DNA of 64,000 bases from Anthoceros angustus (lineage: Eukaryota; Plantae; Anthocerotophyta): assembly GCA_010909165.1 (NCBI GenBank), contig MU008160.1, forward strand, positions 2,108,001 to 2,172,000. Direction: 5' to 3'. The notes under the pieces are model-generated. The model was not told the DNA's origin, did no database searches, and saw only the letters and a list, made by a program, of their open reading frames with translations. This document shows, one piece after another, positions 1 to 59,124 of the stretch (position 1 is its first letter; every line of letters starts with the position of its first letter). The position numbers and the translations under genes were made by a program.

Positions 1-2105
1 GAACAAGCCGATTTGTCGTGAAGGATTGCCGTGGGTACTACTGCTGCAAGAGTTTGATTATGACGTAGAAACTAGGTTGTGGAAGCAAGATCGAATGTCG
101 ATTTCATTTCTCGCCGAAACCGGAGAGCGACTTGAAGCCAGATGACCGATTTCGACGAGGAGTTGGTTGCCACGGCCTGGGTCGAAGGGGGAGGACGTGA
201 GCATGTTGTGGACGGCCTAAGGATTGATCAGCAAGCCTTGCTGCCAGCAGAGAGGTCAAATGAGCAAGAAGGGAGCGCAGTGTGAAAGGCCGCAGCAGAC
301 AACTGGAACCGAGAGGATAAAAGGGCGCCAGTATGGGCGCGAGGAGGAGGCTGGAATGCTCCTCAAGGGTGAGCAGTCAGGAGGCTGCAAGTGGAGGCCA
401 GCCGTTGGCAAAAGAAAGAAGCGAAACGGATATGGGAGCGCCGCCAAGCAAAAGAAAAGGCGCCCACTTGGCGAGGTCGGCCATGCCATGGGGCCGCGAG
501 GAGGAGAAGGCCCTAGGGAGGTAGGTGCGCCAGAGGGCGAGGAAGGAGATGCATCCCATGAGAAGCTTGAGCAAAAAGGAGAAGAAAATGGCGATTCATG
601 GGAAATCACTCATGAGGTGGCCATGGTGCAAACAGCGAGGAGGTCGCCATGGGAGCACGAGCTGGACCTGGACACGAGGCTAGACCAGCAGGAATGGAAG
701 AACCGAACGTTGTTGGAGGAGGAGCATGCAAACGCCGCAGCTCAAAACTGCGATGGACAAAGCGGGAGAAACTGGATTTGTGGATGGAACAACGCCGTCC
801 GGGGCTGCGGCGAGGGCAGGAGGCGACGTGGTATGCGTGGAAGGAGGAGATTGAACGTGAGGGGCGTTCATGCCCAAGATCTGAAATGGTGAGGTACAAA
901 TTTTCTAGAGCATGGAATCATGCCCGATGGTTTGTCTAGGGAGGGCGAGCTGTTTTCTCCACAAGACAGCCCCTTATTGCCTACGGATGGGGTCTTGTAA
1001 GCTTGGTCCGAGAAGATTCGATGTCCGGAAATTAGAGAAGCTGCTTTGGTCACGTTTTACATGCGTAAGAGGCTGGTGGTCATTATTCGACGCAAATCAC
1101 GTGAAGAAGGTCTTGGATGCAGCTCGTGGGCTACAATGCGAGGGATGTGGGAATTTATTAGGAGGTGTGATGCGTGTCGAGGGTTGGAAGGCCCACTTTG
1201 TCAACACAAAGGGCCTCTCACCTACATACTACCTTTGGCACCATTTGAGAAGTGGGTATAGATTTTGTAGGTCCAATCAAGCCACCCACACAATGGACAA
1301 GGAAGCAATATATCTTGGTGGCTACGGACTATTGTACAAAGATGGTGGAGGTCAAGCAACAAGAAAGGACGACGACCGCAGAGAAGTTTCTCTTTGAGAA
1401 CATTATAACGAGGTATGGATGTCCTTTGGAGTTGGTCAGTGATAGGGGAACTCATTTCCTCAACTCGGTGATCGAGACTCTCACCACCTACTTCAACATT
1501 CGGCATCGAAAGACAACTCCTTACAATCCCAAAGCGAATGGTTTGACGGAGAAAACGAATGGGCTGTTGTGTACAATCTTGACCAAGGTAACTGTGACTC
1601 ACATGTATGATTGGGACACTAAGCTACATTCAGTGCTATGGGCTTACAGGACAGCAGAGAAGGTGACAACCAAGAAGACCCCTTATTATTTAACATATGG
1701 CATGTCTCCTGATGCGAGAATTTGAAGTACCTACCTATAGAATCATGGAGGATGAGCGATGATCAGAAGATAGCCGTAGCTAGACTAGAGTCTTCATAGA
1801 GCATGAGGAACGAGGGAAGATGCTTTAGAAGAAACTCAACTGTGGAGCTTAGAAAGGATAGGCATGATGGGAAGTTGAGGAAGCAAGAAGCTATCATGGC
1901 CGGGATTTGGTTCTTCTATATGATAGCTATATGGACTTCCTGGAAGCTTAGATTGAGATGGATGGGACCTTATGAGGTGGTGGCAGTATGAGAATGGATC
2001 CGCAACCACGCAGCCGGATGGGGATTTGCGCCAACTAGAGTGAATGGGTGGAAGGTTAAGAAGTACCTTCACCCGAGTATTCGCTGTTTGCGAGGACGCA
2101 AACAG
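1..2105 (+). mobile_element. Ty3/gypsy (non-chromovirus-like) pol 3' end, family A: RNase H C-terminus, linker, integrase with GPY/F region; frameshifted
   Basis: 1-80 reads across indels as KPDLSxRIAxWVLLLQEFDYDVETR (RNase H end). The integrase core is at 1252-1725. KLRLRWMGPYEVVAV is at ~1945-1990 and VNGWKVKKY at ~2040-2066. Confidence 0.9.
1252..1725 (+). CDS. Retrotransposon integrase catalytic core (rve, DDE)
   Basis: GIDFVGP...ILVATDYCTK...IITRYGCPLELVSDRGTHF...HRKTTPYNPKANGLTEKTN...LWAYRT. Confidence 0.93.
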   Translation: MGIDFVGPIKPPTQWTRKQYILVATDYCTKMVEVKQQERTTTAEKFLFENIITRYGCPLELVSDRGTHFLNSVIETLTTYFNIRHRKTTPYNPKANGLTEKTNGLLCTILTKVTVTHMYDWDTKLHSVLWAYRTAEKVTTKKTPYYLTYGMSPDARI

Positions 2106-2106
2106 T

Positions 2107-2119
2107 GAGGAGGGGAGTA
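2107..2119 (+). promoter_or_regulatory. Polypurine tract of family A element
   Basis: GAGGAGGGGAGTA lies directly after integrase and directly before the TGTGG LTR start at 2120. Confidence 0.85.
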
Positions 2120-2319
2120 TGTGGAACGCAAAAGTTTGGGCAACAAGCTTAAATGAGTTTGCTTTGAACAGCCCACACTCTTTGCTAGAAATGGTTTGGT
2201 GAAGACATGCAAGGAAATTTTTGCCCTTTTTTGAGCGGAGTTGTAGGACCATGCCTGGGAAGGCAGAGGATATGCAGGAAAAGAAACGGGTCAAAACGAC
2301 CTCCGGTGAGGAGAAAAGG

Positions 2320-2562
2320 TAACCTACATGAGTGGTAGGAGGTGTCCTACCACCGTAGGAGAAACTCCTACCATGGTAGACGAGGGTAGGAGAGATCCTA
2401 CCACCGAGGAGGATGACCGCTAGTGTTTTGATCACCTACCAGGAATAGCTCCTACCATGGTAGGAGAGGGTAGGAAGGTATCCCACCAGAGAAACTCCTA
2501 CCGTGGTAGGAGAAAGGGAAAACGCCTACCATGGTAGGAGGATGTCCTACCACGTAGGAGAT
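2320..2562. repeat. Array of ~8-9 dyads CCTACC-N2-GGTAGG at the 5' end of LTR-A
   Basis: Examples: cctaccatggtagg at 2451-2464 and 2525-2538, cctaccgtggtagg at 2497-2510. Further clusters at ~4380-4530, 5785-5862 and 6855-6930, and in other copies (19200-19450, 27240-27320, 28585-28655, 30530-30765, 32275-32350). Confidence 0.9.
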
Positions 2563-2825
2563 AGGTTTCTAAGGAAAGTAGCTTATGTTTTAGGCAGGAT
2601 AGGCTTGCTATATATAGAGTCTTTTAGTGGACTAGATAAATAGGCCAAAATAGGTAATTAAGAAATTAGAGGCTAATTTTCAGAATTAGAAATTAGAAAA
2701 TAGGGAAATTGGTATTTTAGTATAAGGAAATTAGGAAACTAACATCAATGGTGGGGAAAGGGCCACGTGGCACACATCCAAGGGCAGGATAGAATGGTAG
2801 TTACTTTTCTAACCCTTGGGTGACT

Positions 2826-2832
2826 TATAAAA
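2826..2832 (+). promoter_or_regulatory. Putative TATA box for the LTR-internal ORF1 transcript
   Basis: TATAAAA follows an AT-rich stretch and a CCACGTGG G-box-like motif (2763-2770). Conserved at 19711 and in the inverted copy (~30266-30272). Confidence 0.45.
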
Positions 2833-3383
2833 GTGCAGTGCCCGCAGGAGGCCACAACTCGAAACTTGAGGAGACTACCACCAGAAGGCGCCGCCACACC
2901 TCAAGCTGCCCAAGGCCCCCATACAGCAACGCGCCGCACACGCGAGGAGGAGAAGGAGGCGCAAGCTCAAGAAGGAGGCGAAATCCACCAGCGCCCAAGA
3001 GAGGAAGAAGGAGGAAAAGAGGAAGAAGAGAAGGGAGAAGAAGGTTGGGGCGAACCCAACACTTGCCAAGCTCGTGAGGGTGCCTAGGAGGGTGGAGCGT
3101 GGCAAGATTGCTAGGAAACCGTGAAGGGCTCCTAAATTGATGTGTGGTGTAAGAGTCCGTGGGGAATTTTGTTGAGCTTTCTGCAGGAGAAATCGGGTTT
3201 TGAGACGCCAAGGTGTAAGGCTGAGGAAGGAGAGCAAGGGCAAGGACCTTTGAGCTGTGAGCAAGAGCAAATCACGAGGAGGAGGAGAAACGCTTTGCAA
3301 GGATAAGAAGTCGGTGAGCCGCAGGAATTGCAGGAGAGGCATCACTTTTCTTCAATTTCGTGCAAGTACTAACCAAGGAGGCC

Positions 3384-4638
3384 ATGACCAAGCCTACCAT
3401 GACCAAGGGCAAGGAGGTAGTAGCTAAGGAAGGAGCCCACCAAGGAGGTGGCGCAGGAGCTGCAAGAGGTCTAAGGTGAGGATCGACTGAGGGTGGAAAT
3501 TTGACATGCCCTTACGCTATGCAGCCAGCTATCCTCTAGAGACCTTTCGACTTTCGACCTTGGGCAGCAGAGGAGAATATTCAGAGTGGGTGTATGGGCG
3601 ACATTGGTCTTACACCAACCTTGAATTGATAGAAGAGTGTTTTGCTAATTTGCAGCAGACGGAAGAGGAATTGGCCGCCTTACCGGATAGAAACGACGGA
3701 CGGATCCACGGTGTTGGATATGAGGAGCATACGCTGTATATGGCAGCGGATAGCGAGGATAGCGGAATCACGTTGATGGAAGGAACGAGGAGGCAAGCGT
3801 GCATCAACGGCGGATCTTCCCAAGGGAGCCCTTACACTTATGCAAGGGGCATGAAGGCTAAGTCCAAGAATGGTTGGCGACGGACCAAATCTTGGAGCCC
3901 AAGTGGAGATTGTTCACAAGAATTGTTTTGGGCTTGGTGAGCAATCCAAGGGTGTCATATTTCAGCACTACCTTCCTCCATTTTCTATGGAAGATCACTC
4001 AAGGAGCGAAGCCGGATTGGGGCTCATCATGTATGAAGCATACACCTACCACCGGAAAAGTTTGAAACCCAACGCTTGGATGAAGACCCAAGGCCATGCT
4101 ATCTTAGCACTTATCTAGTGCATTTGTGGGAAGTAGAGGGCTACTCACAAGTAAGGAGTTGGATGATTCCAAGCATCCCTTTAACATTGTGTACTTACAT
4201 GTGAGAGGGACAAGGAGTGCTTGGTGCTTTGCCTAAAGGAGGTGCCGGAAGACCACCGACATTATTGCCGGAAGGAATCCTCCAAAGATAGGCCGAGGAT
4301 GTGCAGGAGGACTTGCAAGGAGAAGTTGTAGGGGATTTGAAGTTTGGACCGAAGATGCGGAGATGGAAGGTAGGATAGATCCTACCATGGCAGAATCCCG
4401 CGAGGGTGGGAGGTGTTCCCATTGGTTTGGGACCCCTTCGTCCTCTCATGACAAGGCCTACAAGTGGGGAATTAGTCCTACCACGGTAGGAAGTAGTCCT
4501 ACTGGAGCACCTCCTACCACGGTAGGAGGGAAAGGAAGTCACGGTTTGGAAGCTCCCAAGGGAGATAAGAAGGCAACCGCCCCTGCTAGGTGGGCGAGCG
4601 GATGGAGTCACGGTGGGAGGAGTTGCCCCACCAAGTGA
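3384..4638 (+). CDS. LTR-A ORF1, accessory protein inside the LTR (frameshifted); weak resemblance to plant retrotransposon accessory 'putative plant transposon protein' domains
   Basis: Joined frames give WVYGRHWSYTNLELIEECFANL...ILEPKWRLFTRIVLGLVSNPRVSYFSTTFLHFLWKITQGAKPDWG.IMYEAY...HLWEVEG. Present in all three A copies, with a diverged homolog at ~50400-51200 (-). Boundaries are approximate. Confidence 0.6.
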
Positions 4639-4681
4639 TGAGCGGGAGCTCATCATAGGGAAGCAAGGGATGTAAGATCCC

Positions 4682-7184
4682 ATGAGCAAGGCAAAGGCCT
4701 TGAGTCTCCGGAGGTAAGAAAGGAGACTTAGACATGTTGGAGGAGATGCTGCATAGGGGAGATGTTCAAGGTAGATGTAGGAGCCGCCAAGAGGAGAGTT
4801 GAATTCTTGAAGACGGAGGAGAAGACAAGGACCTACCAAGCAAGGGAAATTGTAGGCGAGCGGAAACCCAGAGGAGGATGTTATGAGGATGGAAGCTCAA
4901 GTGGAGCACTTGGAAAAGAGTCTTGAAACAAGGCTACAGGAGGCAAACAATCATATTCGGAGAACAAGGCTCTTACCAAGCAATTGGCAGCTCGAGAGGA
5001 GAAGGTGGAGCAACTTGCTCACATGGCATACATGGAAAAGAAGGCGAAGACAAGCAAGTGCTAATGGAGGAAAGGTCAAGACGAGAGCAATCAAAAATGA
5101 GGACAAGACAAAGGCAAGTAGGCGCACATGAGCGGTCATAGCCACACAGCCGTGAAGATTAGTGACATGGAAAAGGAGCTGGGAGAAACCACGGAGGCTG
5201 GAATTGAAGGAAGAAGAGCTGGAAGAACGGACACATTTTGTCCAAAGATTGGAAATGGAACGAGAGAGAGTGCACAACTCCCTAGGAGGATAGGGGAGTT
5301 GGAGGAAGAAATGGCAAAGGAGAAAGGCCATGAGGCGGTGCAAAGATATGTTGGCGGTGAGGGAGCGTAGATTTCGGGCCGATTATGCCCTAAGAGATTG
5401 ATCCGCCAACCGTAATGAGAGGACGGAGAATGTGGCTCCATGTCAAGACCGGTGAGCTGGCCTTGGAGCGAGATGCTTACAAAAGCAAGTGTGAGCATGG
5501 AGTATGGCTTGAGGATTACGAAGAATTGGAGATGGCACAACAACGATTTGCCCATCTTCACAACAAGGTGCTCAAGGCCACTAACGAGTTGTTGCGACTT
5601 GCGAGAGGAGGATGTTGGGACCTCATGACGATGATAGGGAGGCCCTCATGCAAGTCCAACCGAAGCCTTAGACTTGGAGAGTGTCCCAAGCAACAGGGTG
5701 GAGAAACTGCACTGTGAGAAGCAAAGCGGGAAGCCGCAGTGGAGAGAATCACCCTGTGAAGGGGTAAGGAAGAAGAAACCTAGGAACTCCTACTGGTAGG
5801 AGGAGTTCCTACTGGTAGGAGGGACTCCTACCGTGGTAGGAGAAGGTCCTACCATGGTAGGAGGGCCGGAAGAAGCAGGATTCAAAGGTCGCTAGCATGG
5901 ATTTGACGGCAAGGGAGGCGAGTACCTTGGCCCTTGCAGAAAGAAGGAAGAGGGGTTGATCTTGCAGAATGGAGCAAGAATCACAAGGAGAAGACCAACC
6001 TCCCAACATGGGTGCAGGGAGTAAAGGAGCTCACTTGCTCCACAAGTGAGAGGAAGAGGAGAAGTCGAGGATGAGCCAAGGCTAAGACAAGCAAGTGCTG
6101 CTAATGGAGGAAAGGTCAAGACGAGAGCAATCTCGCAAAGAAATGAGGACAAGACAAAGGCAAGTAGGCGCACATGAGCGGTCATAGCCACAGTGTGAAG
6201 ATTAGTGACATGGAAAAGGAGCTGGGAGAAATACGAGGTCGGAATTGAAGGAAGAAGAGCTGGAAGAACGGACACATTTTGTCCAAAGATTGGAAATGGA
6301 ACGAGAAGTCCAAAGAACGGAGAGTGCACAACTCCCTAGGAGGATAGGGGAGTTGGAGGAAGAAATGGCAAAGGAGAAAGGCCGTCATGAGGCGGTGCAA
6401 AGATATGTTGGCGGTGAGGGAGCGTAGATTTCTGATTATGCCCTACAAGAGAGATTGATCCGCCAACCGCAGTAATGAGAGGACGGAGAATGTGGCTCTC
6501 CATGTCAAGACCGTGAGCTGGCCTTGAGCGAGATGCTTACAAAAGCAAGTGTGAGCATGGAGTATGGCTTGAGGATTACGAAGAATTGGAGATGGCACAA
6601 CAACGATTTGCAGCCCATCTTCACAACAAGGTGCTCAAGGCCACTAACGAGTTGTTGCGACTTGCCGAGAGGAGGATGTTGGGACCTCATGACGATGATA
6701 GGGAGGCCCTCATGCAAGTCCAACCGAAGCCTTAGACTTGGAGAGTGTCCCAAGCAACAGGGTGGAGAAACTGCACTGTGGAGAAGCGAGAAAGGGGAAG
6801 CGCAGTGGAGAGAATCACCCTGTGAAGGGGTAAGGAAGAAGAAACGACTGTAGGAACTCCTACTGGTAGGAGGAGTTCCTACCGTAGGAGGGACTCCTAC
6901 CGTAGGAGAAGGTCCTACCATGGTAGGAGGGAAGAAGCAGGATTCAAAGGCCGCTAGCATGGATTTGACGGCAAGGGAGGCGAGTACCTTGGCCCTTGCA
7001 GAAAGAAGGAAGAGGGGTTGATCTTGTGAATGGAGCAAGAATCACAAGGAGAAGACCAACCTCCCAACATGGGTGCAGGAGAAGGAGCTCACTTGCTCCA
7101 CAAGTGAGAGGAAGAGGAGAAGTCGAGGATGAGCCAAGGCTAAGAGAGCCCGGCTATTTTATTGGAGGAAGGAACTCAAGATAG
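4682..7184 (+). CDS. LTR-A ORF2, E/K/R-rich coiled-coil accessory protein inside the LTR (frameshifted, partly duplicated)
   Basis: MRMEAQVEHLEKSLETRLQEANN..., ELALERDAYKSKCEHGVWLEDYEELEMAQQRFAHLHNKVLKATNELLRL...LGPHDDDRE. Homologous to the cleaner ORFs at 8766-9833 and 59285-59971. Boundaries are approximate. Confidence 0.65.
5048..7145 (+). repeat. Direct tandem duplication (~1.04 kb x2) inside LTR-A copy 1
   Basis: 6085-7145 repeats 5048-6085, with an AAGA microhomology at the junction. Absent from the other two A copies. Confidence 0.85.
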
Positions 7185-7489
7185 GCATCAAGATAAGGAA
7201 GGGATTCATAAGAAGTCCTTAAATTAGCTTGAAGACATGGGGCAAGATGCCACTTGGGAAGACTTTTCTTTAGAGGAGGATGCATTAATGCTTGTCACCC
7301 AAAGAGAGTGTGTTGACTAGCTAGATAGGAATGTTGACAGTGAGCCATTAAGGCTCACATAGGTGAATTTTGCTAGAATAGAATTTTACCCAAGATGCTT
7401 GGATGTCGAACTTAAAGTCGACAATAGGATACACTAAAATAAGGAGTAAGGCTGGGGAGGCTGTGGGAGGTCAGATGTGAGGACCTCCC

Positions 7490-7496
7490 TATAAAA
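7490..7496 (+). promoter_or_regulatory. Putative main LTR TATA box (U3/R region)
   Basis: CCTCCC-TATAAAA-GGAGGG lies ~870 bp before the LTR end. Conserved in position in A' (~10856), A copy 2 (~32907), A copy 3 (~26701, inverted) and A'' (~60588). Confidence 0.6.
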
Positions 7497-8362
7497 GGAG
7501 GGAGCTTGTGAAGTAAAATTATCGTGTCTTGCGCCCCATCCTCCCGAGTCCTTCACTTTGTGTGAATTTCGTGGCCGCAAGCCAACGCAGTTGTCCGTAG
7601 AGAGGAGAACGCGCGTCGGAGTGCCGGGTGGAGGGCTTGTCTTGCGCTAGCGCCTCCCTTGTGAATGGTCAGGTGAATTGTTTTGCTTTGAGTGTGTGGC
7701 GATGCTCAAGGAACTCTCGGCTTGAGGGTAGACTGCAGGAAAGACTCGGAGGTTCTCCGTCTGCAAACCACATAGCAACCGCCCAAGGAAGAACTCAATT
7801 TCCTGACGACCCTGTGCGCCAGCCGTAAGGGCGAGTTGGAATTAATGAGCCAAGAATTGGTGTTAGAGTAGGAGATTGTGGAGGAAGGAAGGGTAGATGA
7901 GTAGAGAAGAAGAGGGCGTTGTTGATTGAGAGAGTTGTGAGGAGGATTAGAGTGTAGGAAAACTAAGGCCATGTGCAGAGCCTAAGGGACGAATCCCAAC
8001 TGCAAGTAAGAGGGCGCCCTGTGTGGAGAAGAGTGTCTTAGGAGTAGGGACGGTTGCGGTGTGGGTCAGTCCCCTGGCGCCCGTGATAGACACCTTGTCA
8101 TAAGACGAACCGCAATTGTGTGGTGTCGCAGGTTGAGGTTTGGTGAGTTTACGGCAAAGACGGGCGCGAGTCAGTGAGAGGGAGCGTGAGAGGGCGCCTT
8201 GCTTGTTTAGAAGGCTGAGGTAGTGTAGTGCAGTAGTGACGGATTTCAAGATTCGACTGCTTCCCAAGTCTCATGGGACGAAACCCAACGTACGAAACGA
8301 CAGTGGGATAAGTGTGGCCGCTAGAGGGTGCATCTCGGGAGCCCCGGGATCTGCCTCCCACA

Positions 8363-8871
8363 AAGGCTCTGGGATAGCCTATGGCAAAACGTCCTACTTT
8401 CTCCCGTTGTAAATGACTGAGCCAAACCTTTAAACTACGCAAGTCCACAGGTTTCTCTTGCTTCTTGTAAGATAGAAATCCTTCCCTGGGCCAATGATCA
8501 AAAACCTGATGCATGAAGAGATGGTGTTCTAGCTTGCGAAATGCCCCTTCACAGTAGCTGGCCCATACAAAAGTCTGCCAATTCATCCCTCTGCCTGCAA
8601 GCTCAAAAAGATCCTGGTGGTCATATGGAAAGCTTTCGATGTTGCAAGTCTCATGATGAGATTCCACATATAGCAAAAAGGTTTGCAGTTCCAGGAATGT
8701 CTCAGGACATTTGGGCTTCATAGGCTGATACTTTCGAACCAAATAAGTTTGCCATTTATCCTCCCATGGCCGCTCAGGAAATTGCGGCGAAAAAGGCCCG
8801 GGAAATGGAGGAGAGGCAAGTAGGGACCAAATGGCAACTGGAAGCCATGGAGTCCGATGAGAAAGCGGCAA
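8363..8871 (-). CDS. Unknown ORF divergent from LTR-A' ORF2, truncated by the LTR-A insertion
   Basis: Globular-looking W/F/Y-rich sequence (PWEDKWQTYLVRKY...NWQTFVWASYCEGAF...). No family recognised. Confidence 0.4.
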
Positions 8872-9833
8872 CGTTGGAGAAGGTTGTAGAGAAACTCCAA
8901 CATGACATTATGTATCACAAGCGGACAGAGAAGGCCCTGGAGGGGAAGCTGTCCCAATTAAAAGAGAGAGCCATCCGAGCCACCGGTCAACGAGACACAT
9001 GGAGGCAGAAGACGGAGGATCAATTTGTCCAGCTAGAGCAGGAGGGACAGGTCAAATCTAAAGCTCTAGGAAGGGAGAAACGAGCAGCCCAACAGGTGGA
9101 AGCACAGGAGCAAGTGTTGGCTGCCCAAGCCATCAAAATCCGGGATGTGGAAGAAGAGCTGCGGAAAACCCGGTTGAGCTTGGAAGTAAGGAGCATAGAA
9201 TTAATCAGACAAGATCTCCAAGTGCAAGGGCTGGAGCATGAGAAGGAGGCTTGGCAAGAGGAGAGGGAGAGACTTGCCAAGCAAATGGCTGACCTAGAGC
9301 AAAGAAGAGTCCAGGACGAGGAGCGCCACTAGAAGGTGGTGCATAGGATGCTGGTAGTTAGGAAGAGACGATTTTGCGCGGACTATGCCCTTCAATCGAA
9401 ACTAACCAGCCAGCTCAAGAAAGCCAAGGAGGAGAATGTCGCCCATCATGTGAGGGTAGGAGAATTGACGATGGCAAGGGACACCTACAAGGGTAGGTGT
9501 GAAGATGGAGAATGGCCTGCAGATCTCGATGACCTCAAGATGCAATATCAAAGCTTAGGAGCCCATCTTCACAATCGAGTGCTGAAGGCCAACAATGAGG
9601 TGTTGCGCCTTGTGAAGAGGAGGACTTTGGGTCCTCATGATGACGACCGGGGGGCCCTCCTACAAGTAAGACCGGGGGCCTTAGACTTTGATGATGCTAC
9701 AAGTGACATGGACTCTGAAGAGTCAGGAGGGGCGGCGGAAGGAGAAGAAACCGCGGCGCCAAAGGAAGGAGATGGCGCAGGAAGCAAGGTAGGAGATCAA
9801 CCTACGCTTGTAGGGCTCAACCTACCGTGGTAG
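8766..9833 (+). CDS. LTR-A' ORF2 coiled-coil protein (one stop at 9330-9332)
   Basis: ORFs 8766-9332 and 9336-9833 are in the same frame. A heptad-rich N-part is followed by RDTYKGRCEDGEWPADLDDLKMQYQSLGAHLHNRVLKANNEVLRL.KRRTLGPHDDDR. Confidence 0.75.
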
Positions 9834-11677
9834 GTGACCACCCTACCACTAGGGTAGGCGCCCACTGGGGACAAAAGACTCCAATGAGGTCAAGAGAAGC
9901 CGGTGAGGGCTGCTGGGGCCTTGGCCGAGGATGGAGGGGCAGGGGGATCTAGCAACATGCCCCCTAGGATAGATGATAAGGTGGTTGAGGGAGCAACGCC
10001 ACTAGAGGAGACCAAGGATGGGGTACGGCCCATCACGACAGGAGAAGGGGTGCAAAATTCCCACACCCCACGACCAAGGGAAGAACCGGGACCTGGAGAG
10101 GAGTCCAACGCAAAGAAGGCCCGGAGAAATCAGTAGGAGGAGGAAATCATTGGACAGCAAATGGGGAGGAAGGATCTTTTGAGAATGTTCCATGATAGGT
10201 ATGGACAAATCAAACAGTAGACAAGGGAGCAAAGAAGAACTCTTCTTCTTTGCTTCCTTCCCAGGAAGCCTTCTCCGAGGTGAAGAAGAAAGGAGAGCAG
10301 CATTGAGGGAAGGGACCAACCTACCATGGTAGGTGGTCAGCCTACCCTGGTAGGTTGTTAGCCTACCGCAGTAGGGTCAAGTTTGAAGAGGCGCGGCTAG
10401 CAATGAAAGGCAAGAAGACGGGCCGAAAAGAAGGGGGAAGGGGCGCGACCAATTAAAGGATAAGTGGAAACGAGGCGCCGCCCCCGCGGAGAAGGAAGAG
10501 GGGGCAAGAAGATCCTTGCCCCACAAGTCGTTAAGAGTTAGAGGCTGGGTAGGGGCCAGCAGCAGAACAAGGATGTGAGGGCCAATCCGGAGAGAACCCG
10601 TCACCACCCTAGCAAGATAAGGATCCAATTGGTCAATGACCATAAATGTGCTTTGGGAAGTGGGAAGGATAAAAGGTGTAGGCTGAAGTTATTTAAAGAT
10701 TGACATGGGTGGAATTGCTAGAATAAAATTTACCTAGGATCAGACAATAGACTTAGATGTCAGAACTTACATACTGGCAGTAGGAAATAATAGAATATTG
10801 GGAAAGGTGGCCTGCAGCAGGCACACCCAAGGGAGATGGTATGTGGAGGTCCTCCTATAAGAGGAAGAAGATTTCACAAAATAAAGTATCACGCCTTATG
10901 CGCCCATACTGGGCGAGTCCTCGCCTTGTGAAGGAATTGCACACCGCAGCTGTTGTTCAGGGTAGAGAGGAAGTTCACGGCGGTCGAGTGCTTGGTAGAG
11001 GCTCACTCTGCACGCCGACAAGTTGCTCCCTTGTGAATGGTTGAGAAATTGCTTTACTTTGGGTGCGCGATGCCCAAGAACCTCGCTTGAGGGTAGACTA
11101 CATGTGGAAAGACTCTGGAGGTTCTCTCAAAGTGTCAAACTCATGGCAACTAGCCCAAGGAAGAACTTGCTAGCTTGTATGCGGACCCTAGGCACTTGTG
11201 CCGTAAGGGCGAGCCGGGGCCAGTGAGCTTGAAGTGAAGTTAGAGTAGGACAAGGATGATGAGTCGAGTTGAGCGTTGAGGAGGATGATGAGTAGAGGAT
11301 TAGAATGAAGGAAATAGTGGAAGGCCACAAGCAGAGCCTAAGGGACGAATCCCAAATCTGTAACAAGAGAGTGCTCAAATTGTTGGAAGAGTTAGTCTTA
11401 AAGGTGGGGACGAAATCATGGCTCGGGGTCCGGGCGCCTGTGGTGGAGTCCTTTCCTGAGGCATGGCTAGTGGTCGTTGTAGGTCGGGAGTTGGTGAATT
11501 TTGATCAAGGCATGCAACCGGCCGAGAAGGAGAGTTAGAGGCGCCTTGCCTCGTTGAGGGGTTGAGGTCAACCAGTATACAACCATTGATCTTGCAGTAA
11601 TCCTTGCTCACAAAAGTCTCATGGGATCGCCCACGACCGATGGGATAAGTGTGGCCACTAGAGGGTGAATCTTGGAG

Positions 11678-12070
11678 TGTCACACACAGGTAACTGAATT
11701 CATATAAGCACTTCCTCTATTAAACAACCATGCAAAATAAATCTAATACGCAGATATATAGGTGCAAACCAATTACAACATGAGGGAGTAGCTCGCACAT
11801 CGTGGCATAAACACACTCTCCCCATGAGAACAACAAACAAATTCCTCACGCTCTGATCACAGCTTTGGCCTCCTCACAACACCCTAGCATTGAGACATCT
11901 AGAGGACAAGCTATGATCCGAGCTTGTCCTCAATGGAAGGGTCTATATATACTAGGGCATATTCCTAAGATATCCTATATCAAGATATGCCGGAAATATC
12001 TTAAGAATACACTATAATATGCAAGGAATATGCTAAAAGCACATTACTTGAGCTTATCCACTTAGCTATT
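11678..12070 (-). repeat. AT-rich repeat family C (LTR-like or satellite), inverted fragment
   Basis: The reverse complement matches 48815-49210 (GCTAAGTGGATAAGCTCAAGTAAT...GAGGAAGTGCTTATATGAA). Confidence 0.8.
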
Positions 12071-19001: not shown

Positions 19002-20092
19002 TGTGGAACGCAAAAGTTTGGGCAACTAGTTTAAATGAGTTGTTTTGAACAGCCCACACTCTTTTGCTAGAAATGGTTTGGTGAAGACATGCAAGGAAAT
19101 TTTTGCTCCTTTTGAGCGGGAGTTGTAGGACCATGTCGGAAGGCAGAGGATATGCAGGAAAAGAAACGGGTCAAAACGACCCACTGTGAGGAGAAAAGGT
19201 AACCTACATGAGTGGTAGGAGGTGTCCTACCACCGTAGGGAGAAACTCCTACCATGGTAGACGAGGGTAGGAGAGATCCTACCACCGAGGAGATGACCTC
19301 GCTAGTGTTTTGATCACCTACCAGTAGGGAATAGCTCCTACCATGGTAGGAGAGGGTAGGAAGGTATCCCACCGTCAGAGTAACTCCCACCGTGGTAGGA
19401 GAAAGGGAAAACGCCTACCATGGTAGGAGGATGTCCTACCACGGTAGGAGATAGGTTGCTAAGGAAAGTAGCTTATGTTTTAGGCGTGATAGGCTTGCTA
19501 TATATAGGGTCTTTTAGTGGACTAGATAAATAGGCCAAAATAGGTAATTAAGAAATTAGAGGCTAATTTTCAATTAGAAATTAGAAAATAGGGAAATTGG
19601 TATTTTAGTATAAGGAAATTAGGAAACTAACATCAACGGTGAGAGGGCCACGTGGCACACATCCAAGGGCAGGATAGAATGGTAGTTACTTTTCTAACCC
19701 TTGGGTGACTTATAAAAGTGGGTGCCCGCAAGAGGCCACAACTAAACTTGGAGACTACCACAGCAGAAGGCGCCCCGCCACACCTCAAGCTTCCCAAGGC
19801 CCCCATACAACGCCCGCACACGCGCCTGCGCCGAGGAGGAGAGAAGGAGGCAAGCTCAACAAGGAGGCGGAAATCCAGGCCCAAGAGAGGGAGAAGGAGG
19901 AAATTGAGGAAGAAGAGAAGGGAGAAGAAGGTTGGGGCGCAACACTGCCAAGCTCGTGAGGGTGCCTAGGAGGGTGGAGCATGGCAAGATTGCTAGGAAA
20001 CCGTGAAGGGCTCCTAAATTGTCAAGGTGTAAGAGTCCGTGGGGAATTTTGGTGAGCTTTCTGCGGAGAAATCGGGTTTTTGGGACGCTAAG
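19002..20092 (+). mobile_element. LTR-A copy 2 (solo), part 1
   Basis: Starts TGTGGAACGCAAAAG with no PPT upstream. Matches 2120-3212. Confidence 0.9.
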
Positions 20093-20339
20093 GAGTGTGT
20101 AACAACTCACCGCCGAATCAACTAGCCCGAAAATGGATGGCTGCTGACCTACACCCGCCATTGGGGCAAGTGCGAGGTTCCAATGAGTAGAAGGGCGTGG
20201 GGGTTGTGGTGCAGTTGGGGCGTGAGCTCAAGGCTTGACCTGCAAATCTTGGTGGTAGTAGCAAATATTCAAATGAGAACTTTGAAGACAAGTGGAGAAA
20301 AGGTTCCATGTGAGCAAGAATTGGACATGGGTTAGTCCT
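20087..20339 (+). rRNA. Displaced 26S/25S rDNA fragment (non-functional)
   Basis: GCTAAGGAGTGTGTAACAACTCACC.GCCGAATCAACTAGCCC...ATCTTGGTGGTAGTAGCAAATATTCAAATGAGAACTTTGAAG...GGGTTAGTC are conserved eukaryotic LSU motifs. Confidence 0.9.
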
Positions 20340-35334: not shown

Positions 35335-35560
35335 CTGAAGGAGAAGTCCTGTCCATGACTCCGTCAGAGGTTAGGTACTCCCCATCAAGTCCCTCATGCG
35401 CTTCTGTGACACAATCCTTGCTTTTGGATCCGGTTCACAATGCACGTATCTTCGTACTTTGATGCCACACTTCAGCACTGCTTCCAAGCCGATACTGATG
35501 CCTCCAAAGAGTTCCACTAGCACTGTGGCGTCTTCCCGAGGTCGCCATGTGATCACCTGA
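35335..35560 (-). CDS. N-terminal part of the same C5 DNA methyltransferase (motif I SAM-binding, motif II)
   Basis: VLVELFGGISIGLEAVLKCGIKVRRYVHCEPDP. Removing 16090-35334 joins ...CTTCTCCTTCAG to ATGGATGTTAGC (LLLQ-MDVS), with (T/C)CAG duplicated on both sides. Confidence 0.82.
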
Positions 35561-35561
35561 G

Positions 35562-49930: not shown

Positions 49931-52576
49931 CTTGATCACATCCCAAACCTACATGCGGTCCTCTTTCTTCGTCTCCAATGCAGTTCACAACAACGTAACA
50001 AGCATAGAGGATTTATCAAGAGAAGTCGTGATCTCAATGAGCGCCTCCTTGAGCACACCGATCCACACATCTGTGTCTTCATCACAATCTTCCTTCATCG
50101 CCGCTGTCATCTTGACAAACACGCCAAGAGAGAAAAGATTCCTCCTTGCCTTGCTCCTTGCGCCCGGTCGCCTACCACTTTAGTCCGCCCACCCTCTTGG
50201 GTAGGCCTCCCCGGTAGGTCAAGGGCCTCGCCAGGCACAAGCGAGATGGTGGGGACTCCCCACCCTTGCTCACCCCTCTGTGGTAGTCCTCCTCTCATAG
50301 ACTACCATTCGGCCTTCCTCGGCGGTTCATTCCTCTCCTCTTTCTTGCTCACAGGGGAAAAGATTCCCACTCAGCAACCTTGTTGCCTCTACATCCTCCA
50401 CCCTTGCTCCTAGCATGCTTGTGGAGGTCTGACCTGCCTTTCTCGGTGCAAAAGTCAAGGCCTTTCAAGGGGTCGAGATGGATTATCTCAAGGATGCCAA
50501 GCATCTTCCAACTCCTTGCTTGTGAGAAGTCCTCCTGCTTTCCCACAAATGCACCAAATAGGTGTGCTAAGGTAGTGGCCTTCCTCATCATCAATTTGGC
50601 TTGAGGAGCTTCTCCGGTGGATGTAGGCCTCATACATGATGGTGCCTAACTGCTCTCCTCCTCAAATCTTCCACAAAATTGTGAAGTTGGTGCAAATAGG
50701 AAGTCCTTTAGTAATTTACCAACCCCAATACAATCTTCGAAAGAGCCTCCACTCAGCCTCTTGATGCTATCTCGCTTTCCAGCCATTCTCGCATGGGCCT
50801 CACCTCCGTCCATCATGTCGAGGAGCTCATGAATATCTGAGAGGTCAGCCCTCTTCCCTCCATTCGGACCTTTCGAGGAGAGCAATTCCCGAGCTTTCCT
50901 CCTGGCCTCCCATACACACGAATGCTCCTTACGGTTCAAAGAATGAGGATCCGTCGAGCATTCCTTTCCTAACGCTGCAAGGGCTGCCTCTCGATTGATG
51001 GAGATTGATGAAGCACTCCTCAATCACCCAAATTGGTGTAGGCCCATTGCCGGCCATACACCCATCCTAACTGATATTATCTTCCTCACGCCCACCGCCA
51101 AATCCACTAAATCACGAGGTTGAGCCGCCCCGCAAAACACGAATTGGGGCATTACAACTCATTTCATGGCGGCGCCCTACTGCCCTTCTTCTCCTTGCCT
51201 CCTCACAGGAAGAAGAACCTTGGCAGCGCTCTTCCCTTGCTCTTCCACATGCAGGCATGGCACATTCCTTACTTCCAACGCCTTAACGAAGAGAATTACT
51301 TTCCAATTCCAAGCGTTGTGTGCTCCAAAGCTTCACTCCCAAGCATTCCTTCCTTGTCACTAGGAGCGACACCCAACCTCGAGGCACAAGTCTGCATTAG
51401 CCCGGTTCCGACCCTTCCCGGGTCACGCCAATTTCCCTTCGCGATTTCTCCTCCCGGGGCAAGGCACCGGAGTGAGCTGCTTTCTTCTTCTCCGTTCAAT
51501 TTGCTCCTCTTTGCGCTCTCAATCCCTTCAATCTCACACCGCGCTAGGTTCCTCGACTGTGGCTCCCGCCTCGAGTAAATTCCAAAGACCAAGGCCCTTC
51601 ACAACCGGATCCAAACACCCGCTGGTGTTCGAGGCCGAGTCTGCCTCCTCCTCCTTCGCTTAGGTTTCTCTCGCTCGCGCCACCCTCCTCTTGCTCACAA
51701 GTCGCACACGCACAAGACCTTCCTTTTTTCAAGGCTTCCCCACGCCTCACCTCGCCTTCGCGGAATGAGGGCGCCTCAAGAGGAAGTTGCAAACCGCACT
51801 TTGCCTTTTGGATGATCGCCACGGAGGCCCACAACCCTAGATTAGGTAGGCAAACCACCGCGATAGGGGAGCAGCCACCGCGAAAGGTGCACCTACGCCG
51901 AGGGGTGCGAGCCTACCATGGGAAGGGAAAGAAAAGCAGCCGCTAGCGGCGGGCGCCCAGCCACTACCCACGCTTGGAGGAAGGGCGGATGGGGCGACTG
52001 AGGGGACTGCAGCGTGATGGCCCAGGAGTACAAGGGAGCTGGAGATTTCTAGCAAGGGGCCAACAGCGTAATTTGGGCCCTGAGACTTGGCCGAGTGCTT
52101 GTGAAGCACTTGGGCCCATGGATTTGAAGGGGCTAGGGGGAGCCAGCGCCCTTGTGGGCATGCCGAGAGGAAGTGAGGCCCAAGACATGGCCGGAGGAAG
52201 GCAGTGGACCAAGTGGCACTGGAAGCCATGGAGTCCGGCAGAAGGCAGCCAAGTTGGAGAAGGTCAGAGAGCTTCCGACCTTGTAGATCAGCCGGCTTAA
52301 AAGGCCTGAGGGAAGGTTGTCACAAACAGAGGAGAGAGCCATTCGGGCGACAACCCAAAGGGACTCTTGGAGGCGGAAGAGCATTTTGCCCAATTGGAGC
52401 AAGAGCGGAAGGGCAAAACGGAGGCTCTAGGAAGAGGGAAGCAGGCGACTCAGCAAGTGGAGGCGCAGGAGCAGGTGATGGCCACTCAAGCCATCAAAAT
52501 CCGGGACATGGAAGAAGAATTGCGAAGGACCCGGTACAATTTGGAAGAGAAGCGCTCGGAGCTGGAGACACAAGAC
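49930..52576 (+). mobile_element. Large LTR family A'' (part 1): ORF1 homolog on the minus strand, ORF2 start on the plus strand
   Basis: The minus strand at ~51000-51065 reads WVYGRQWAYTNL..IEECFINL (ORF1). The plus strand at 52200-52576 matches A' ORF2 (AQQVEAQEQV.A.QAIKIRD.EEELR). Confidence 0.75.
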
Positions 52577-55500
52577 TGTTGGGGATAAAACCCTACCATA
52601 GCTTGTACTACAGTTAATATACTTCAGTTAAGTAGTTAACCCAAGAGACACATTAACAATTTTGTATATAAGAGCACCTTCTTTATTAATTAATGCTTTT
52701 GTTTTACACGCTCCGCTTATTAGCATGGTATCGCAGCACCACTCTATCGATCCATTTAGGCCCCATTCTAGAATGCTATTAGCATAGATAATTTATCTAA
52801 TCACATAATACAAAATCTCTCTCGTGAGGAATGTGTGATTGTGTGACTAGTAATTCATCTTGCCTCGCACTCTAGATAGTGTTATTATATTCTAAATTAA
52901 ATGGGATTGTAAATGAGTCCTGGATTCTACATCATGACGGAGATGTGGCGGCGTCCCATGAGCCCTTCTCACAATTTTGTGGGTGCAAGAGATAAAATCG
53001 CCCATGCAAGTTGAGCATCAAGGTGGCTCACGTGGGTGCATTCTCAACGCCCAGGCCACGGACATCACCTCCTCCAACGACAAGATCCCACCAAACAACT
53101 TGGAGGAGAGAGCCCATCTCCGCACTCCCTACAAAGACTGCAGTAATTTCCCAACAGATTGCGACACACGCATCTCAACATCGATCTGAAGGAAGGTTTA
53201 ATACCTGTGGCTCAATACCGGATCTCAGGCTGGAAGCTTTGCGCATGAGAGTTACCAGCGCTGAGGAGATCCTTCTCGCACAAGTCTGCAGAGGACAATC
53301 TCTTTTGCTTCAACAGGAAGAACGCCTTTTCGTGGTGCACGATTTGCTCCAGAGTGTTCAGAATTCACTCGTCGCCCTCACCTTGAGATTGGAGCGTGCT
53401 GAAATTGGACCTTTGTCTGCACGAGCTCCGCTGGTTGCCACCTACTTGCCGACCTTGGTGCCTACACGCGAGGACCCATCCATGGCGCCGAGTGGGCGAT
53501 CAGATCCAGGCGCTACTCGACTGGATCCCGCCCAATCAACCCGAGGATCGCGCAAGTAGGTGCAAGCAGTGCAAGCGCAGACTCTCACCGACCCCAATCA
53601 AGACCTTTGCCTAGGTTAATGATTCGCTGAGTCCCGCCACCGTCAAATTCATGATCACCTGTGGCGTTTCATGTTAGTTTGCACATTTCAGATCTAACCC
53701 TTTAAACAAAGATCGCGTAAACGCCACGTACTTTTAGATGTCGTTTCATTTTCTCTCATGTCGTATGACTTGGGTTACTGCTTGGGGATTCGAGGGGACT
53801 TTGGATGAGGATTTAGCCACGATCTCCTTTCTTCAATCCTGCAGCCTCAATTCCTCGTGATTCAACCCTCCCCACATTTAGAGTACCATCTCCTCGTTAA
53901 CATGGGTTCCGCTGCTCGGCATTATATTCGGTGAATTCAAAGAAAAGATCGCTTGATGGCAAACTGTTACTTAGAGCTGAGAGCACGAATGCAAGCAACC
54001 AACGCGAGGGATGTTTGGGAGTACGCGATGGGAGCATCGCCAATCCACACTGGTCCCATCTACAATGCAAATCAACCAACAATGTATGAGAAGGCGAATG
54101 GGACAAAGGGAACAAAGTAGCTTTCGCCATCTTGCCGTCTGGTCGGATGCTGAACTGTCATTGAGGTTGAGTTCCTGCACAGCATGCTGCAACTCGACTC
54201 AAATTTGACACGCATATGTACAATGTGTGTACCTGATGAATCACAAGGATTTCCACTGCTCGTGATAAGGAAGGAGACCTCGTGGACCCGAGTGGAATTA
54301 CCAAGTTGAGGCTTCAAGGAGCACAATTAGTCGCGCTAGGTGCCAAGATCATTGAGGTCAAAATGGTTGCCCACATTGCCTTTGCCCTCATCCTACCAAA
54401 CGCTTATCTCCTGATGAATTGCCCTCTCTCTCACTGTATGCCGCTGAATCAACCTTATAACCTCGAACTCCGAACATCGTGTTGGGGCCTCTCAAGAGGA
54501 AGCCAAAGACACAAACCAGTGTCGTGGCCTTTGAGCAAGAGGAGAAAAGGTTCTTTGCGGCAAAAGCCGCTTTGTAAAGGGAAGGGGAAAGAAAAGAAGA
54601 CTCACCACCTAAGCGGTTCGTGGCTCGAACTCATCTCCCTCCATCAAACGGCAGGTACGTCTGGTGGTGCTAAATTGCTGGTCACCGGGAGAGGGACCCT
54701 TAAGAAAAGTCTCTGAGACCCAAAGAAGGATCCTCGACTGAAGCACATGTTGCCGCCATAAGGACAAGGATCTTCTCCACAAAGCAAATGTCCTAATAAG
54801 AATAAATGCTTTGTCGCCGTCGATCCACAAACTCTTGGTTTATAGATTCAAAAGCGCCCATGTCTGTAATAACAAAGATCTGCTTTTACATAATCAAAAT
54901 GTATGTCCCAAAGACACTATGGGGACTCTAGAGGCATAGACGTACGTGGAATGGCATCGCATTACCTTACCTTGGCCGATGGGTCCGAATCTTCGGAGGA
55001 TGTTCTCTATGTCCCCGCCATGTCGAAAAATTTGGCCGCCGATTAGGGCACGCACTAACTGAAAGTATGGTTTCTCCTTTGAGCAGGCATGTCAGATGAC
55101 CTGTCTGCACTGGAAAGTGTATTGCTAGAGGTCACGGTAAATGAGCTATATCATGAACCTCGTCTGTGTGGCTTATGTTACCTCAACCACCTCCAAGCAA
55201 GTCTTGCATGCTAGGCTTGGACATGTAAATAGGGAAAAGTTGAACCTTATGTCTTCACCGACATTTAGGAGAAACCGCCTCCTATTTCAAGCAATGCCTC
55301 TGCCCGCCTTGTGTGTCCTCTCAAAGCGTAAGGAGCTTCCTTCAAAACAAACAGTACGTGAGGGCTCAGCGTCGGACCTCATACATGCCGATATTGCCGC
55401 AAGCCGCAGTTAAGTCACCGGGTGGCGCAGAGTATTATCTCACCTTAACGACGATTACTCCTCGCTACACTTGGGTCTTCCCACTACCAAGAGTGATGCT

Positions 55501-58500
55501 TTGAGTGTATAGAAACCTCGGATTTCTATGGTACAGAGACAAACCGGTAATCCGTGAAGTGCTTTCGCATAAGCGGGGGAGTTCGTTGGTCGCCAATATG
55601 ATGTGCTATTTGCAGCTCATGGATCATTCGCCACTGCCATTCCATATACTCAAGAGTAGCCGAACGTAAGAACCAGACTGGTGGGTATGACAAGGAGCAT
55701 GCTTGGATGGGCGGGTTTGCCCAAATACCCAAGGTAAGCCCTTACAATCATGACCACATACTTAATGTGAGTTCCCGACAACTTCATTACCCGGCAAAAC
55801 TCCCTATGAGGCGTTCTCGAAGAAGAAGCCCAAATTGTCAGATTCATGGTGTTCGGCCCACAAAGATATGCATATATTCCTAAATGTAAGAGGCGCAGTT
55901 AGATGACAGTGGCTAGGCCCCTTTGGCTATTCTTCAAAGGCATATAACTCGTATGAGCCTGCAACCCATAAGGTGGTGTTGGCACGTAGTGTTACCTTTG
56001 ACGAGCTTACTACTCCAAGGGGGCAGACTTTAACATATTTCGGGACAGATATACTGCCCATCCGCAGAAGTTACAAGTACTGGCATGAAGAGGACAGCTC
56101 AGGCTTAGTCATACTTGATGCAGCAAACCAAGTTTCACCTCAACACGTGGTTCAACAACCAAAGAAGTGAATTACTCCCGATTCAGATGGCGAGGACTTT
56201 CTACCGCCATGTCGATGTCGAGGATCAAGAGCCCTGGTACTTTTACATGTTGACCGAGGTTTCTTCACCATTCGATGAATATTCGTATTCCATGTTCTCT
56301 GCAGATCCGATGAAATAGTCAATTATCGATGGTGAATTCTCGACCGCCCAAGCAAAGTGGGAGTACCCTTGCAGCCGCGTGGTTGATGAACCCAGATATC
56401 CTACACGTGAGCGACGTTCACGTGAGCACTGGACTGAACCACCTTACCAGGCACTTGATTTTCGACGAGGCTCTCGGCTCATGTTGCGCATTTCACCGTA
56501 CTCAAGTTCGCCAGACTCCACAAACGATGAAGAGGCTATTAATGGCCCCGATGGCCCTCAAGCACTTCAATAGATGATGAGTATGCTTCACTCTTAAAAA
56601 CAACACTGGAGCTCGTGGACTTACTCGAAGGCGTGAAGCCCATTAGTCAGCAAATGGGTGTTTAAGACCTAAGTTGAAAGTGTATGGACGATCGCTAGAT
56701 ACAAATCTACTCGGGTTGCTCGTGGATTTAGCCTAAATTCCGGCATAGATTATGGTGACACTTTCTCACCAAGAGTAAAGCCACCTTCTGCTGGATTCTC
56801 TATGGCAGAAAGAGTACGATCTGGAGGTACAACAAATGGATGTGTGTACTGCCTTTTTGCATGGGGAACTAGAAGAGACCTCTGTATACGCAATGTACCA
56901 CAAGGGTACATCACCACAAATGTTTACTGTGTGGAAAACGATATATGGTCTTAAACAATCACCTCGTGCTTGGTACAAGCGGATAATGAAGTATCTTCGC
57001 AAGCTTGGTTTCCTCTCCCGACACTAATGTTTTTACTTACGATGGCTCACGCTCGTCATTCTAGCTCTTATGTTGACGACGTCGTGCTTCTTAATAATAA
57101 TCGAATAGCTTGATAAGGTGAAGGACATGCTGCGCAAGGAATTCGAGATGATGACCGGGTGATCTACAATCTGCATATGATCCTCAAACGATCCCATGGT
57201 CAGGTCACATTACATCAAACGAAGTACATTACGGAGATACTTAAAAGGTTTCACCTGAACGAGGTAAGATTCAGAGTCACTCCCTCTGCTGGGGAGAAAC
57301 TTACGGCCATGTCCCTCGTAATGAACGTGAACTTGAGGACATGCAACTTGTTCTTGCGCAGAGGCAGCTATCGCTCGATCTTTTGGCAACCTGACAAGAC
57401 CCGACACATCGCCATTACTGGCCTCGATGGTCTCACAGTTTTTGAAGTCTCCTGGACGACATTGGCAGCATGTCAAGAGGATTTACATATCTAAAAGGTA
57501 CCATCTCATATGGTCCGCAATACACCAAAGCGTGGGAGTAACAAGCTAGAACTTATCTCATATGCCGATGCCGACGGGCCTCTGGCGACACCGTGAAGAG
57601 TCTCGTCTGACATCCTTTGTTTCCGTTCCGTACTATCACCGGAGCTGCAAGAAGGCACTTCCTCGCTCAAGTCTGCCGAGTATAAAGCTCTCACCGATGC
57701 CCTGCAAGAAGCCGAGTGGAGAGAGCCGGAGTCGATGAATCAAGCCGCAGACAGTCCAACACTCACGCTATGTGACAACATGAGCGCAATTGCCCTTGTC
57801 TCCAACCCTAGGTTTCATGCCAGAACCAAGCATATAGAACTCTATCATCACTACATTAGGGACACAGCTGAACGGGACATAGTCAAGGTTGAGTATGTTA
57901 GCACACATTTAAATACTGCAGACATATTTACCAAGGGGCTTCCCAAAGCCAAACACTTTCAGCACATGGCCGCTTTAGGTCTCAAGGAGTTCAGCTATCC
58001 CTAGCATGTCTCACTGGCTACATTCTGTGGAGGACTGGCACTAGCAGTCTCTAGGGTTTGTGCACACCACACTGAGAGGTCTGCACCTTGGTGGCTCATG
58101 CCACAACTTCCATTAGGCCTCAGTCTTCACGAGGTGCCACCCTAGGTTCAAGTCCATTCTGCACAGGTCACAGCCTTTGGTCAGTCACATGTCTGCTTAG
58201 AGGATGAAGCTCAATGAAAATTCTAGGCGAAGCAGACATGGTTTAGGTAGGAATTTACTTAGTGGTAGAGCTTTTGTCGACAAAGGCACCGCTCAGTAAG
58301 CACACACACTATGGGCCTCTAGAACCACGACGCCTACCTATTCACCTCAATGTCGCCAAGAGCTTCGTGCAGCAGCCTTTTCCACACTCTATCGCCCGCT
58401 GCCCCGCCACCTCAATTCGTTTTATGTCCAGAAGCTTCTCCATCTCTGCAAGTGTTGCAAACACAGTTTCCACCTGGTCAGCTAGCAGTAGAGCGATGTG

Positions 58501-59119: not shown

Positions 59120-59124
59120 AAGAC

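Follow-up and report, generated by a model that had tools for sequence, protein, structure and literature searches.

A long terminal repeat with two putative genes upstream of its main TATA box in a Ty3/gypsy-type retrotransposon of Anthoceros angustus

The 64,000-nt stretch of Anthoceros angustus (Anthocerotophyta) DNA analysed here, called the window throughout (GenBank assembly GCA_010909165.1, contig MU008160.1, positions 2,108,001 to 2,172,000 of the forward strand), is a nest of retrotransposons. Near its left end, the 3' part of a Ty3/gypsy-type pol gene runs into a polypurine tract (PPT), directly behind which begins a unit that we read as a long terminal repeat (LTR). This copy, A1, carries two putative genes in open reading frames (ORFs), ORF1 and ORF2, together with arrays of a short palindrome. 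Related LTRs in the window fall into three families, A, A' and A'', which are ~65–70% alike, and A-type LTRs cover 24,063 of the 64,000 bases. The features of A1 and its upstream border are as follows:

909..2108 (+): 3' part of pol, Ty3/gypsy-type integrase (Pfam rve, integrase structures, six-frame reading)
2107..2119 (+): polypurine tract abutting the LTR start (sequence)
2120..8362 (+): LTR copy A1 (3' LTR), TGTGG...CCACA, ~5.2 kb without its private duplication (sequence comparison of copies)
2346..2560 (no strand): palindrome array 1, of CCTACCRYGGTAGG units, upstream of the first TATA (2825)
2825..2833 (+): TATA-like box, possibly the promoter of ORF1 within U3 (3/3 A copies)
3384..4675 (+): ORF1, probably a globular core (~3490–4230) and a low-complexity tail (relative R, codon tests)
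4381..4526 (no strand): palindrome array 2, within the tail of ORF1 and before ORF2
4682..6090 (+): ORF2, predicted long coiled coil, conserved block at ~5470–5640, acidic tail; end not fixed (codon tests, motif, fold model)
5789..5861 (no strand): palindrome array 3, again at 6859–6927 in the duplicated copy
6078..7145 (+): second copy of 5041–6087, private to A1 or an assembly error
7489..7497 (+): main LTR TATA box, context kept in A1, A2, A3, A' (10855) and A'' (60587)
8266..8362 (+): conserved U5 end, GTCTCATGGGA...GGGATAAGTG...CACA (5/5 A-type LTR ends)

Borders, size and copies of the LTR unit

The integrase region contains a Pfam rve match (E 7e-09 at 1249–1722) and resembles retroviral and Ty3 integrase structures. 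In a six-frame reading of 909..2108 its C-terminal motif stops ~50 nt upstream of the LTR start, with neither a chromodomain behind the integrase nor a spacer before the PPT. The purine tract at 2107–2119 is followed directly by TGTGG at 2120, and the unit closes with CCACA at 8362, just as a preliminary description of this DNA, made from the letters alone, had reported. A1 therefore has TG...CA ends, a PPT 5' of the 3' LTR and the integrase as the last pol domain, and the absence of a chromodomain behind an integrase that ends at the PPT is a trait of the non-chromovirus OTA elements (Athila or Tat). A contig of run X3 (contigs of this run serve as sequence evidence only) spans the integrase, PPT and LTR start (1817–2326) with 27 differences, indicating that another copy has the same PPT/LTR junction. 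In one X3 contig, at window 2108–2141, a repeated segment containing the PPT precedes the LTR start, and the sequence upstream differs; this copy is possibly a variant or non-autonomous form.

At the right end, two of the 145 X1 contigs aligned to 8240–8400 have TTTTTGGC directly behind 8362. The same letters open the primer site behind the 5' LTR of a second family, B, at 43554. This site, the only one of its kind on the two strands, stands behind a CCACA end of that LTR and before a gag-like region. The fuller family-B primer site probably matches tRNA-Asp; against the window, the full primer-site motif matched no better than chance. The TGGC start behind 8362 in the X1 contigs, over its eight letters only, is compatible with the primer-binding site of Athila elements, which is mostly tRNA-Asp (PMC6317226).

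A1 is 6,243 bp long, including a tandem duplication (5041–6087 / 6078–7145) whose copies differ by 3 substitutions in 756 columns. Because this 1-kb duplication is absent from the copies A2 and A3 and from the contigs of runs X2 and X3, the LTR unit is best taken as ~5.1–5.2 kb. The preliminary description was thus right about an LTR of ~5 kb (A2 measures 5,079 bp), whereas 2120..8362 is no plain unit, since it includes the private duplication. One X3 contig of 4,405 nt runs from 2305 to 7524 of A1.

The main TATA box at 7489 has a conserved context in 5/5 A-type LTRs, and the probable start site and U3/R border would lie shortly after it. ORF1 and ORF2 both lie upstream of this box and therefore in U3, as had been proposed from the letters. 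A comparison of the first with the last 1,500 nt of A2 finds no terminal direct repeat besides the palindrome arrays and very short matches, and no internal primer site occurs within the unit, which contains five purine runs followed by TG besides that at 2107. Full elements with short paired LTRs and internal ORFs, the arrangement that the preliminary description had named as speaking against an ORF-bearing LTR, were not encountered in the window. The PPT, the primer-site start, a whole solo copy and the lack of an internal terminal repeat support the reading of 2120–8362 as one LTR.

The further copies and relatives in the window are:

8766..11686 (+): A' family LTR, 5'-truncated, ORF2 frame 8724–9830 (sequence comparison)
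19002..33735 (+): A3, LTR in three pieces, 19002–20096, 24665–25871 and 30951–33735 (sequence comparison)
25872..30950 (-): A2, whole solo LTR of 5,079 bp with both ORFs, nested in A3 (sequence comparison)
50490..51157 (-): R, a diverged ORF1 core head-to-head with A'' ORF2 (64% nucleotide identity to A2, E 7e-46)
51860..61408 (+): A'' family LTR with a putative ORF1 tail (~51960–52070), ORF2 split by an element, U3 end, R region and U5 (sequence comparison)
52577–59119: 6.5-kb element splitting A'' ORF2, target-site duplication (TSD) AAGAC

The two further copies with the same ends and unrelated flanks that had been announced are indeed A2 and A3, with the reservation that the last letter of A2 differs: all three A copies start with TGTGG and end in CCAC(A), A1 and A3 with CCACA and A2 with CCACG. 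A3 is split twice, by the nested A2 and by a 4.6-kb insertion, and the solo copy A2 has neither pol nor a primer site. The A copies differ by 0.9–1.6% substitutions in gap-free blocks, with ~90% identity over whole alignments. The flanks of A2, CCCAC and CCTAC, match at 4/5 positions in a 5-bp register inside a tandem array.

The two reading frames

ORF1 and ORF2 are both frame-broken in every A copy of the window. Gaps private to one copy make up 6.2–7.3% of columns in the ORFs and 6.4–9.3% in the non-coding parts, and the 4,405-nt X3 contig covers window 2305–5188 (2,884 letters) with 3,050 letters and 170 gap letters. Because the gap density is alike in coding and non-coding parts and the X3 contig is longer, the frameshifts are best read as sequencing error; the indels look like long-read-type errors rather than decay.

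ORF2 starts with the ATG at 4682 or 4736, ~6–60 nt after the likely ORF1 stop. Its motif C-E-x-G-x-W...HLHN-K/R-V/I-LKAxNE...GPHDDDR is kept in A, A' and A'', bearing out the preliminary description on this point, and a single TAG is the only interruption in the 369 codons of the A' frame (8724–9830). At a synonymous divergence (dS) between families of ~1.3–1.6, the ratio of non-synonymous to synonymous differences per site (pN/pS) of ORF2 is 0.21 [0.13–0.31] on 93 codons and 0.17 [0.11–0.26] on 101 codons for A' against A'', and 0.30–0.34 for A' against A1, the A1 duplicate, A2 and A3, whereas the shifted frames of these comparisons give 0.73–1.45. A ratio near 1, which had been named beforehand as telling against genes, is thus seen in the shifted frames (~0.7–1.5) and not in frame (0.17–0.34). 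The frame-free periodicity of mismatches points the same way, with z of 7.6 and 14.4 for A' against A'' and 6.8 and 9.0 for A'' against A; it is weak for A' against A (z only 1.5–2.7), and none of five non-coding controls is positive. By these codon tests ORF2 is clearly under purifying selection between families ~65–70% alike. A single-sequence fold predicts an all-helical protein (mean predicted local distance difference test, pLDDT, 77.5; predicted template modelling score, pTM, 0.47), with long helices that turn briefly at C-E-D-G-E-W and an acidic tail that is disordered; E/K/Q/R make up 49% of its N part. No transmembrane-like window occurs in 8/8 natural stretches (maximum KD19 1.09; ORF1 covered in part), so that the genes are not env-like in the strict sense.

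For ORF1 the preliminary description had given ~3384–4638. The start ATG at 3384 stands, the MTKPTM start being present in 3/3 A copies; the end does not, the TAA at 4673–4675 being more likely, on a short alignment that is suggestive only. The TATA candidate that had been assigned to ORF1 is found at 2825 in 3/3 A copies. R, which the preliminary description does not mention, shares the motifs WVYGRxWxYT, IMYEAY and TYLVHLWE with ORF1 and is likely a local inversion or a nested piece. Between the ORF1 N-core and R there are 9 identical, 12 synonymous and 11 non-synonymous codons, with mismatches distributed 7/6/20 by codon position and pN/pS of 0.23 [0.09–0.47] on 24 codons. Clear in-frame ratios occur in two of five ORF1 segments (0.23 and 0.31), and the periodicity against R has z of 3.3 for A1 (p 0.004), 0.8 for A2 (p 0.22) and 2.1 for A3 (p 0.03). 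ORF1 is probably also under purifying selection, with a weaker signal than ORF2. On the plus strand just upstream of A'' ORF2 lies a match to the ORF1 tail (tblastn E 8e-05; 6 of 11 changed codons synonymous). If this match is real, ORF1 ends with the TAA at 4673–4675, the order ORF1–ORF2 is an old one, and R is an ORF1 that was inverted locally. The structure model of the ORF1 N-piece has a pLDDT of 38.8, too low for use. The minus-strand frame 8152–8907 was considered as an ORF1 relative of A' and set aside on a DNA comparison, in which nothing matched A2 upstream of ORF2.

The proteins of ORF1 and ORF2 have no family found in these searches. A word search with ORF2 and with an ORF1 piece yielded no homolog, and phmmer with 129 aa of ORF2 gave 0 matches at E <=0.001 among 1.84 billion representatives. 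In the ESM Atlas the ORF1 piece, partly out of frame, had no usable match, and the best match of ORF2 reached 0.86 with no common family; of the pattern matches in metagenome contigs 0/261 and 0/155 were confirmed. Pfam returned only below-cut-off matches for ORF2 and the ORF1 pieces (E up to 0.05 or 10): Athila ORF-1, Transposase_28 and the plant mobile domain were not matched by ORF2 or by the ORF1 pieces (52–176 aa, mixed frame), nor PF03078, PF04195 and PF10536 by the fragments tested. Foldseek with ORF2 against the PDB gave 0 matches at E <=0.001 and generic coiled coils only. The ORF1 mid-core may resemble plant transposon accessory proteins, a likeness for which Pfam gave no support; since ORF1 was searched in pieces only, a remote link to a known accessory family may exist. 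That the LTR holds two once-functional genes is, on the sequence comparisons, very probable.

Palindrome arrays and other features of the window

The 14-bp palindrome CCTACCRYGGTAGG, a feature absent from the preliminary description, has 34 matches at <=1 mismatch, 34/34 of them in A-type LTRs, against 0.14 expected, a figure that flatters, as the pattern was picked from the window itself. At <=2 mismatches 43/45 lie in A-type LTRs and none in family B. In family A the palindromes cluster in three arrays, of which one precedes the TATA at 2825, one ORF2 and one the main TATA; array 3 at 6859–6927 lies ~560 nt upstream of the main TATA. A' and A'' hold arrays 3' of ORF2. Array 2 in A3 is the landing site of A2, which has thus inserted in a palindrome array of its own family (25867–25871 / 30951–30955), and the inversion junction of R is near palindrome motifs at 51854 and 51912. 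From these two cases only, the arrays may be hot spots for insertion or recombination.

The element at 52577–59119 has LTRs of ~150 bp and the primer site TGGTATC, and its TSD, AAGAC, is clean; we presume from the look of its RNase H region that it is copia-like. Family B is a second large LTR of at least 2.6 kb, at 43555–46140 (-) and 16113–19001 (-). Its copy ending at 43555 is followed by the primer site TTTTTGGGCGTTGCCGGG and then the gag-like region, with zinc-knuckle-like motifs. Family B was considered as a second ORF-bearing LTR on account of a shared short protein-like stretch, HVEEAI...YHELLKA, and rejected, as it shows no codon periodicity. The insertion splitting A3 contains pieces of eukaryotic large-subunit ribosomal RNA (Rfam; 23167–24674), adjoined by a duplicated integrase region with a PHD finger (22796–23209). 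Downstream of a gypsy pol, 35374–35586 (-) encodes VLVELFGGISIGLEA...YVHCEPD, which resembles the first motifs of a C5 cytosine methyltransferase, Pfam giving no match. Two further open frames are protein-like, 8152–8907 (-) of 252 aa and 34127–34801 (+) of 225 aa, with no Pfam match.

Interpretation and significance

We favour, as the probable account, a ~5.1-kb LTR of a non-chromovirus (Athila/Tat-like) Ty3/gypsy element that carries in its U3 two genes under purifying selection (clearly so for ORF2, more weakly for ORF1), likely self-regulators acting via the arrays of the 14-bp palindrome. RNase H cleavage at the PPT sets the start of U3, and during reverse transcription the 5' LTR receives a copy of the 3' U3. 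With the PPT at the end of the integrase, the accessory region between pol and the 3' LTR probably became U3; the accessory genes would then have been doubled in every insertion and kept in solo LTRs along with a promoter and poly(A) region. In Athila/Tat elements, the stretch from pol to the 3' LTR holds additional ORFs and arrays of repeats (PMC7264820, PMC11963269), and non-chromovirus LTRs reach ~5 kb (PMC6317226); for the lineage context see PMC13468544.

From the putative U3-internal promoter at TATA 2825 a transcript might arise that serves ORF1 and, through re-initiation or a second start, ORF2 as well; ORF1 might bind the palindrome as a dimer, and ORF2 might form an oligomeric coiled-coil scaffold with its acidic tail, the two switching on or de-silencing the element's own LTRs via the palindrome arrays. 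We propose a self-targeted regulator because palindromic sites would suit a protein that binds as a dimer, arrays stand ahead of the promoters, and VANC proteins act on the repeat arrays of the element that encodes them, binding its tandem motifs (PMC5735166); Athila-domain and VANC proteins have been modelled as coiled-coil pentamers (PMC13547354). A self-targeted role rather than some other accessory one is possible and held tentatively. The fullest form of the idea, a two-gene module for sequence-specific self-activation or anti-silencing that moved into U3 with its palindromic targets, so that each solo LTR would be a self-reinforcing transcription unit and, acting in trans, would keep its family active, is doubtful.

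Several observations weigh against the account we favour. No element with both LTRs lies within the window; the primer-site evidence at the right end of A1 amounts to eight letters in two contigs; A3 has no TSD, and that of A2, matching at 4/5 positions, is weak evidence, because it requires two more array units in A3 than in A1 and A2. Codon periodicity among the A copies is found in 0/4 ORF comparisons, a test of low power with few substitutions, so that selection is demonstrated between families and not among recent copies. An intact ORF1 is not seen in any copy; three of five ORF1 segments lack a clear in-frame signal, and its periodicity is not significant for A2 (p 0.22). R lies on the strand opposite to A'' ORF2, a TATA of the 2825 type was not found before it, and the ORF1-tail match in A'' scores 30 at the DNA level, where shuffled sequences reach up to 32. 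A TATA specific to ORF2 is missing, neither ORF is linked to DNA binding by a match in Pfam, in sequence or in fold, and repeat arrays with no known function are common in such elements (PMC11963269).

Three other explanations draw on parts of the same evidence. The same LTR-borne genes could serve the particle or its trafficking, with an ORF2 oligomer aiding RNA export, particle assembly or nuclear entry, and the palindromes being host-factor sites or neutral. The predicted long charged helix of ORF2, with its E/K/Q/R-rich N part, and the SMC-like coiled-coil domains in accessory ORFs of Retand and PvRetro13 (PMC11963269, PMC7264820) would suit such a role, but the stretches read have no transmembrane-like window of the env kind and the arrays are kept across families ~65% alike; we regard it as unlikely. 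Improbable is the view that the genes were useful in older families and are now passengers, the recent A copies and solo LTRs having neither expression nor selection. Selection was indeed measured over the large dS between families, with no codon signal among the A copies, all of which are frame-broken in the window. However, most of the breaks occur in one copy alone and are equally dense outside the coding parts, the independent contig exceeds the window by 166 letters over 2305–5188, only one stop interrupts the 369 codons of A' ORF2, and the A copies, differing by ~1–2% only, offer too little for testing.

The unit might, finally, not be one LTR at all: a mobile cassette of its own, or a short LTR with an internal accessory region attached to it, could have inserted behind a PPT. 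The want of a clean TSD and of a two-LTR element in the window, the five further purine runs followed by TG inside the unit, and the X3 contig with the LTR start behind different upstream sequence would agree with this. Against it stand the identical TGTGG starts and CCAC(A) ends of 3/3 A copies, a left end that abuts the PPT in two independent sequences and a right end that abuts the primer-site start, and the lack of an internal primer site or terminal direct repeat, which together make this explanation very improbable.

An LTR with genes in its U3 has partial parallels. The plant non-chromovirus Ty3/gypsy elements with extra ORFs (the env-like ORF and ORF-1 of Athila, the antisense ORFs of Retand, Grande and RIRE2, and Ogre; PMC7264820, PMC6317226, PMC11963269) resemble ours in being OTA-like, in having conserved extra ORFs 3' of pol, repeat arrays and coiled-coil products, and in LTRs of up to ~5 kb; their extra ORFs are described as internal, whereas here the PPT touches the integrase and both sense ORFs lie in U3. 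ORF0 of the grass elements Retrosat2, RIRE3 and RIRE8 is an extra ORF under purifying selection in elements with LTRs >3 kb, but it is described as lying 5' of gag-pol and is dealt with separately from the LTR (PMC3485330). The sag gene of mouse mammary tumour virus (MMTV) and the betaretroviral LTR genes offer a U3 gene with an internal U3 promoter, kept in solo LTRs and under purifying selection (PMC4667437). MMTV is an animal retrovirus with one such gene, whereas here the 5-kb LTR of a retrotransposon holds two, and no sequence relation was seen. The VANC proteins of VANDAL elements share with our unit an element-encoded accessory protein and arrays of a short motif in the same element (PMC5735166). 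VANDAL is a Mutator DNA transposon in which binding is demonstrated, whereas here the likeness is an analogy for function only, with no homology found. In the literature, chiefly outside subscription papers, we found no report of genes inside a plant retrotransposon LTR.

That a layout with U3 genes is already known from MMTV lowers the surprise. The function of accessory ORFs in plant retrotransposons is an open question, and candidate proteins together with candidate target sites in one unit make the regulator idea testable. A shift of the PPT that turns the accessory region into U3 would be a simple route to giant LTRs. Plant LTRs have been treated as non-coding, and an element reduced to a solo LTR as one that no longer codes for anything; a two-gene 5-kb LTR would break with both views. 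Should each solo LTR indeed act as a self-reinforcing unit, the recombination that normally disarms such an element would instead spread its regulator.

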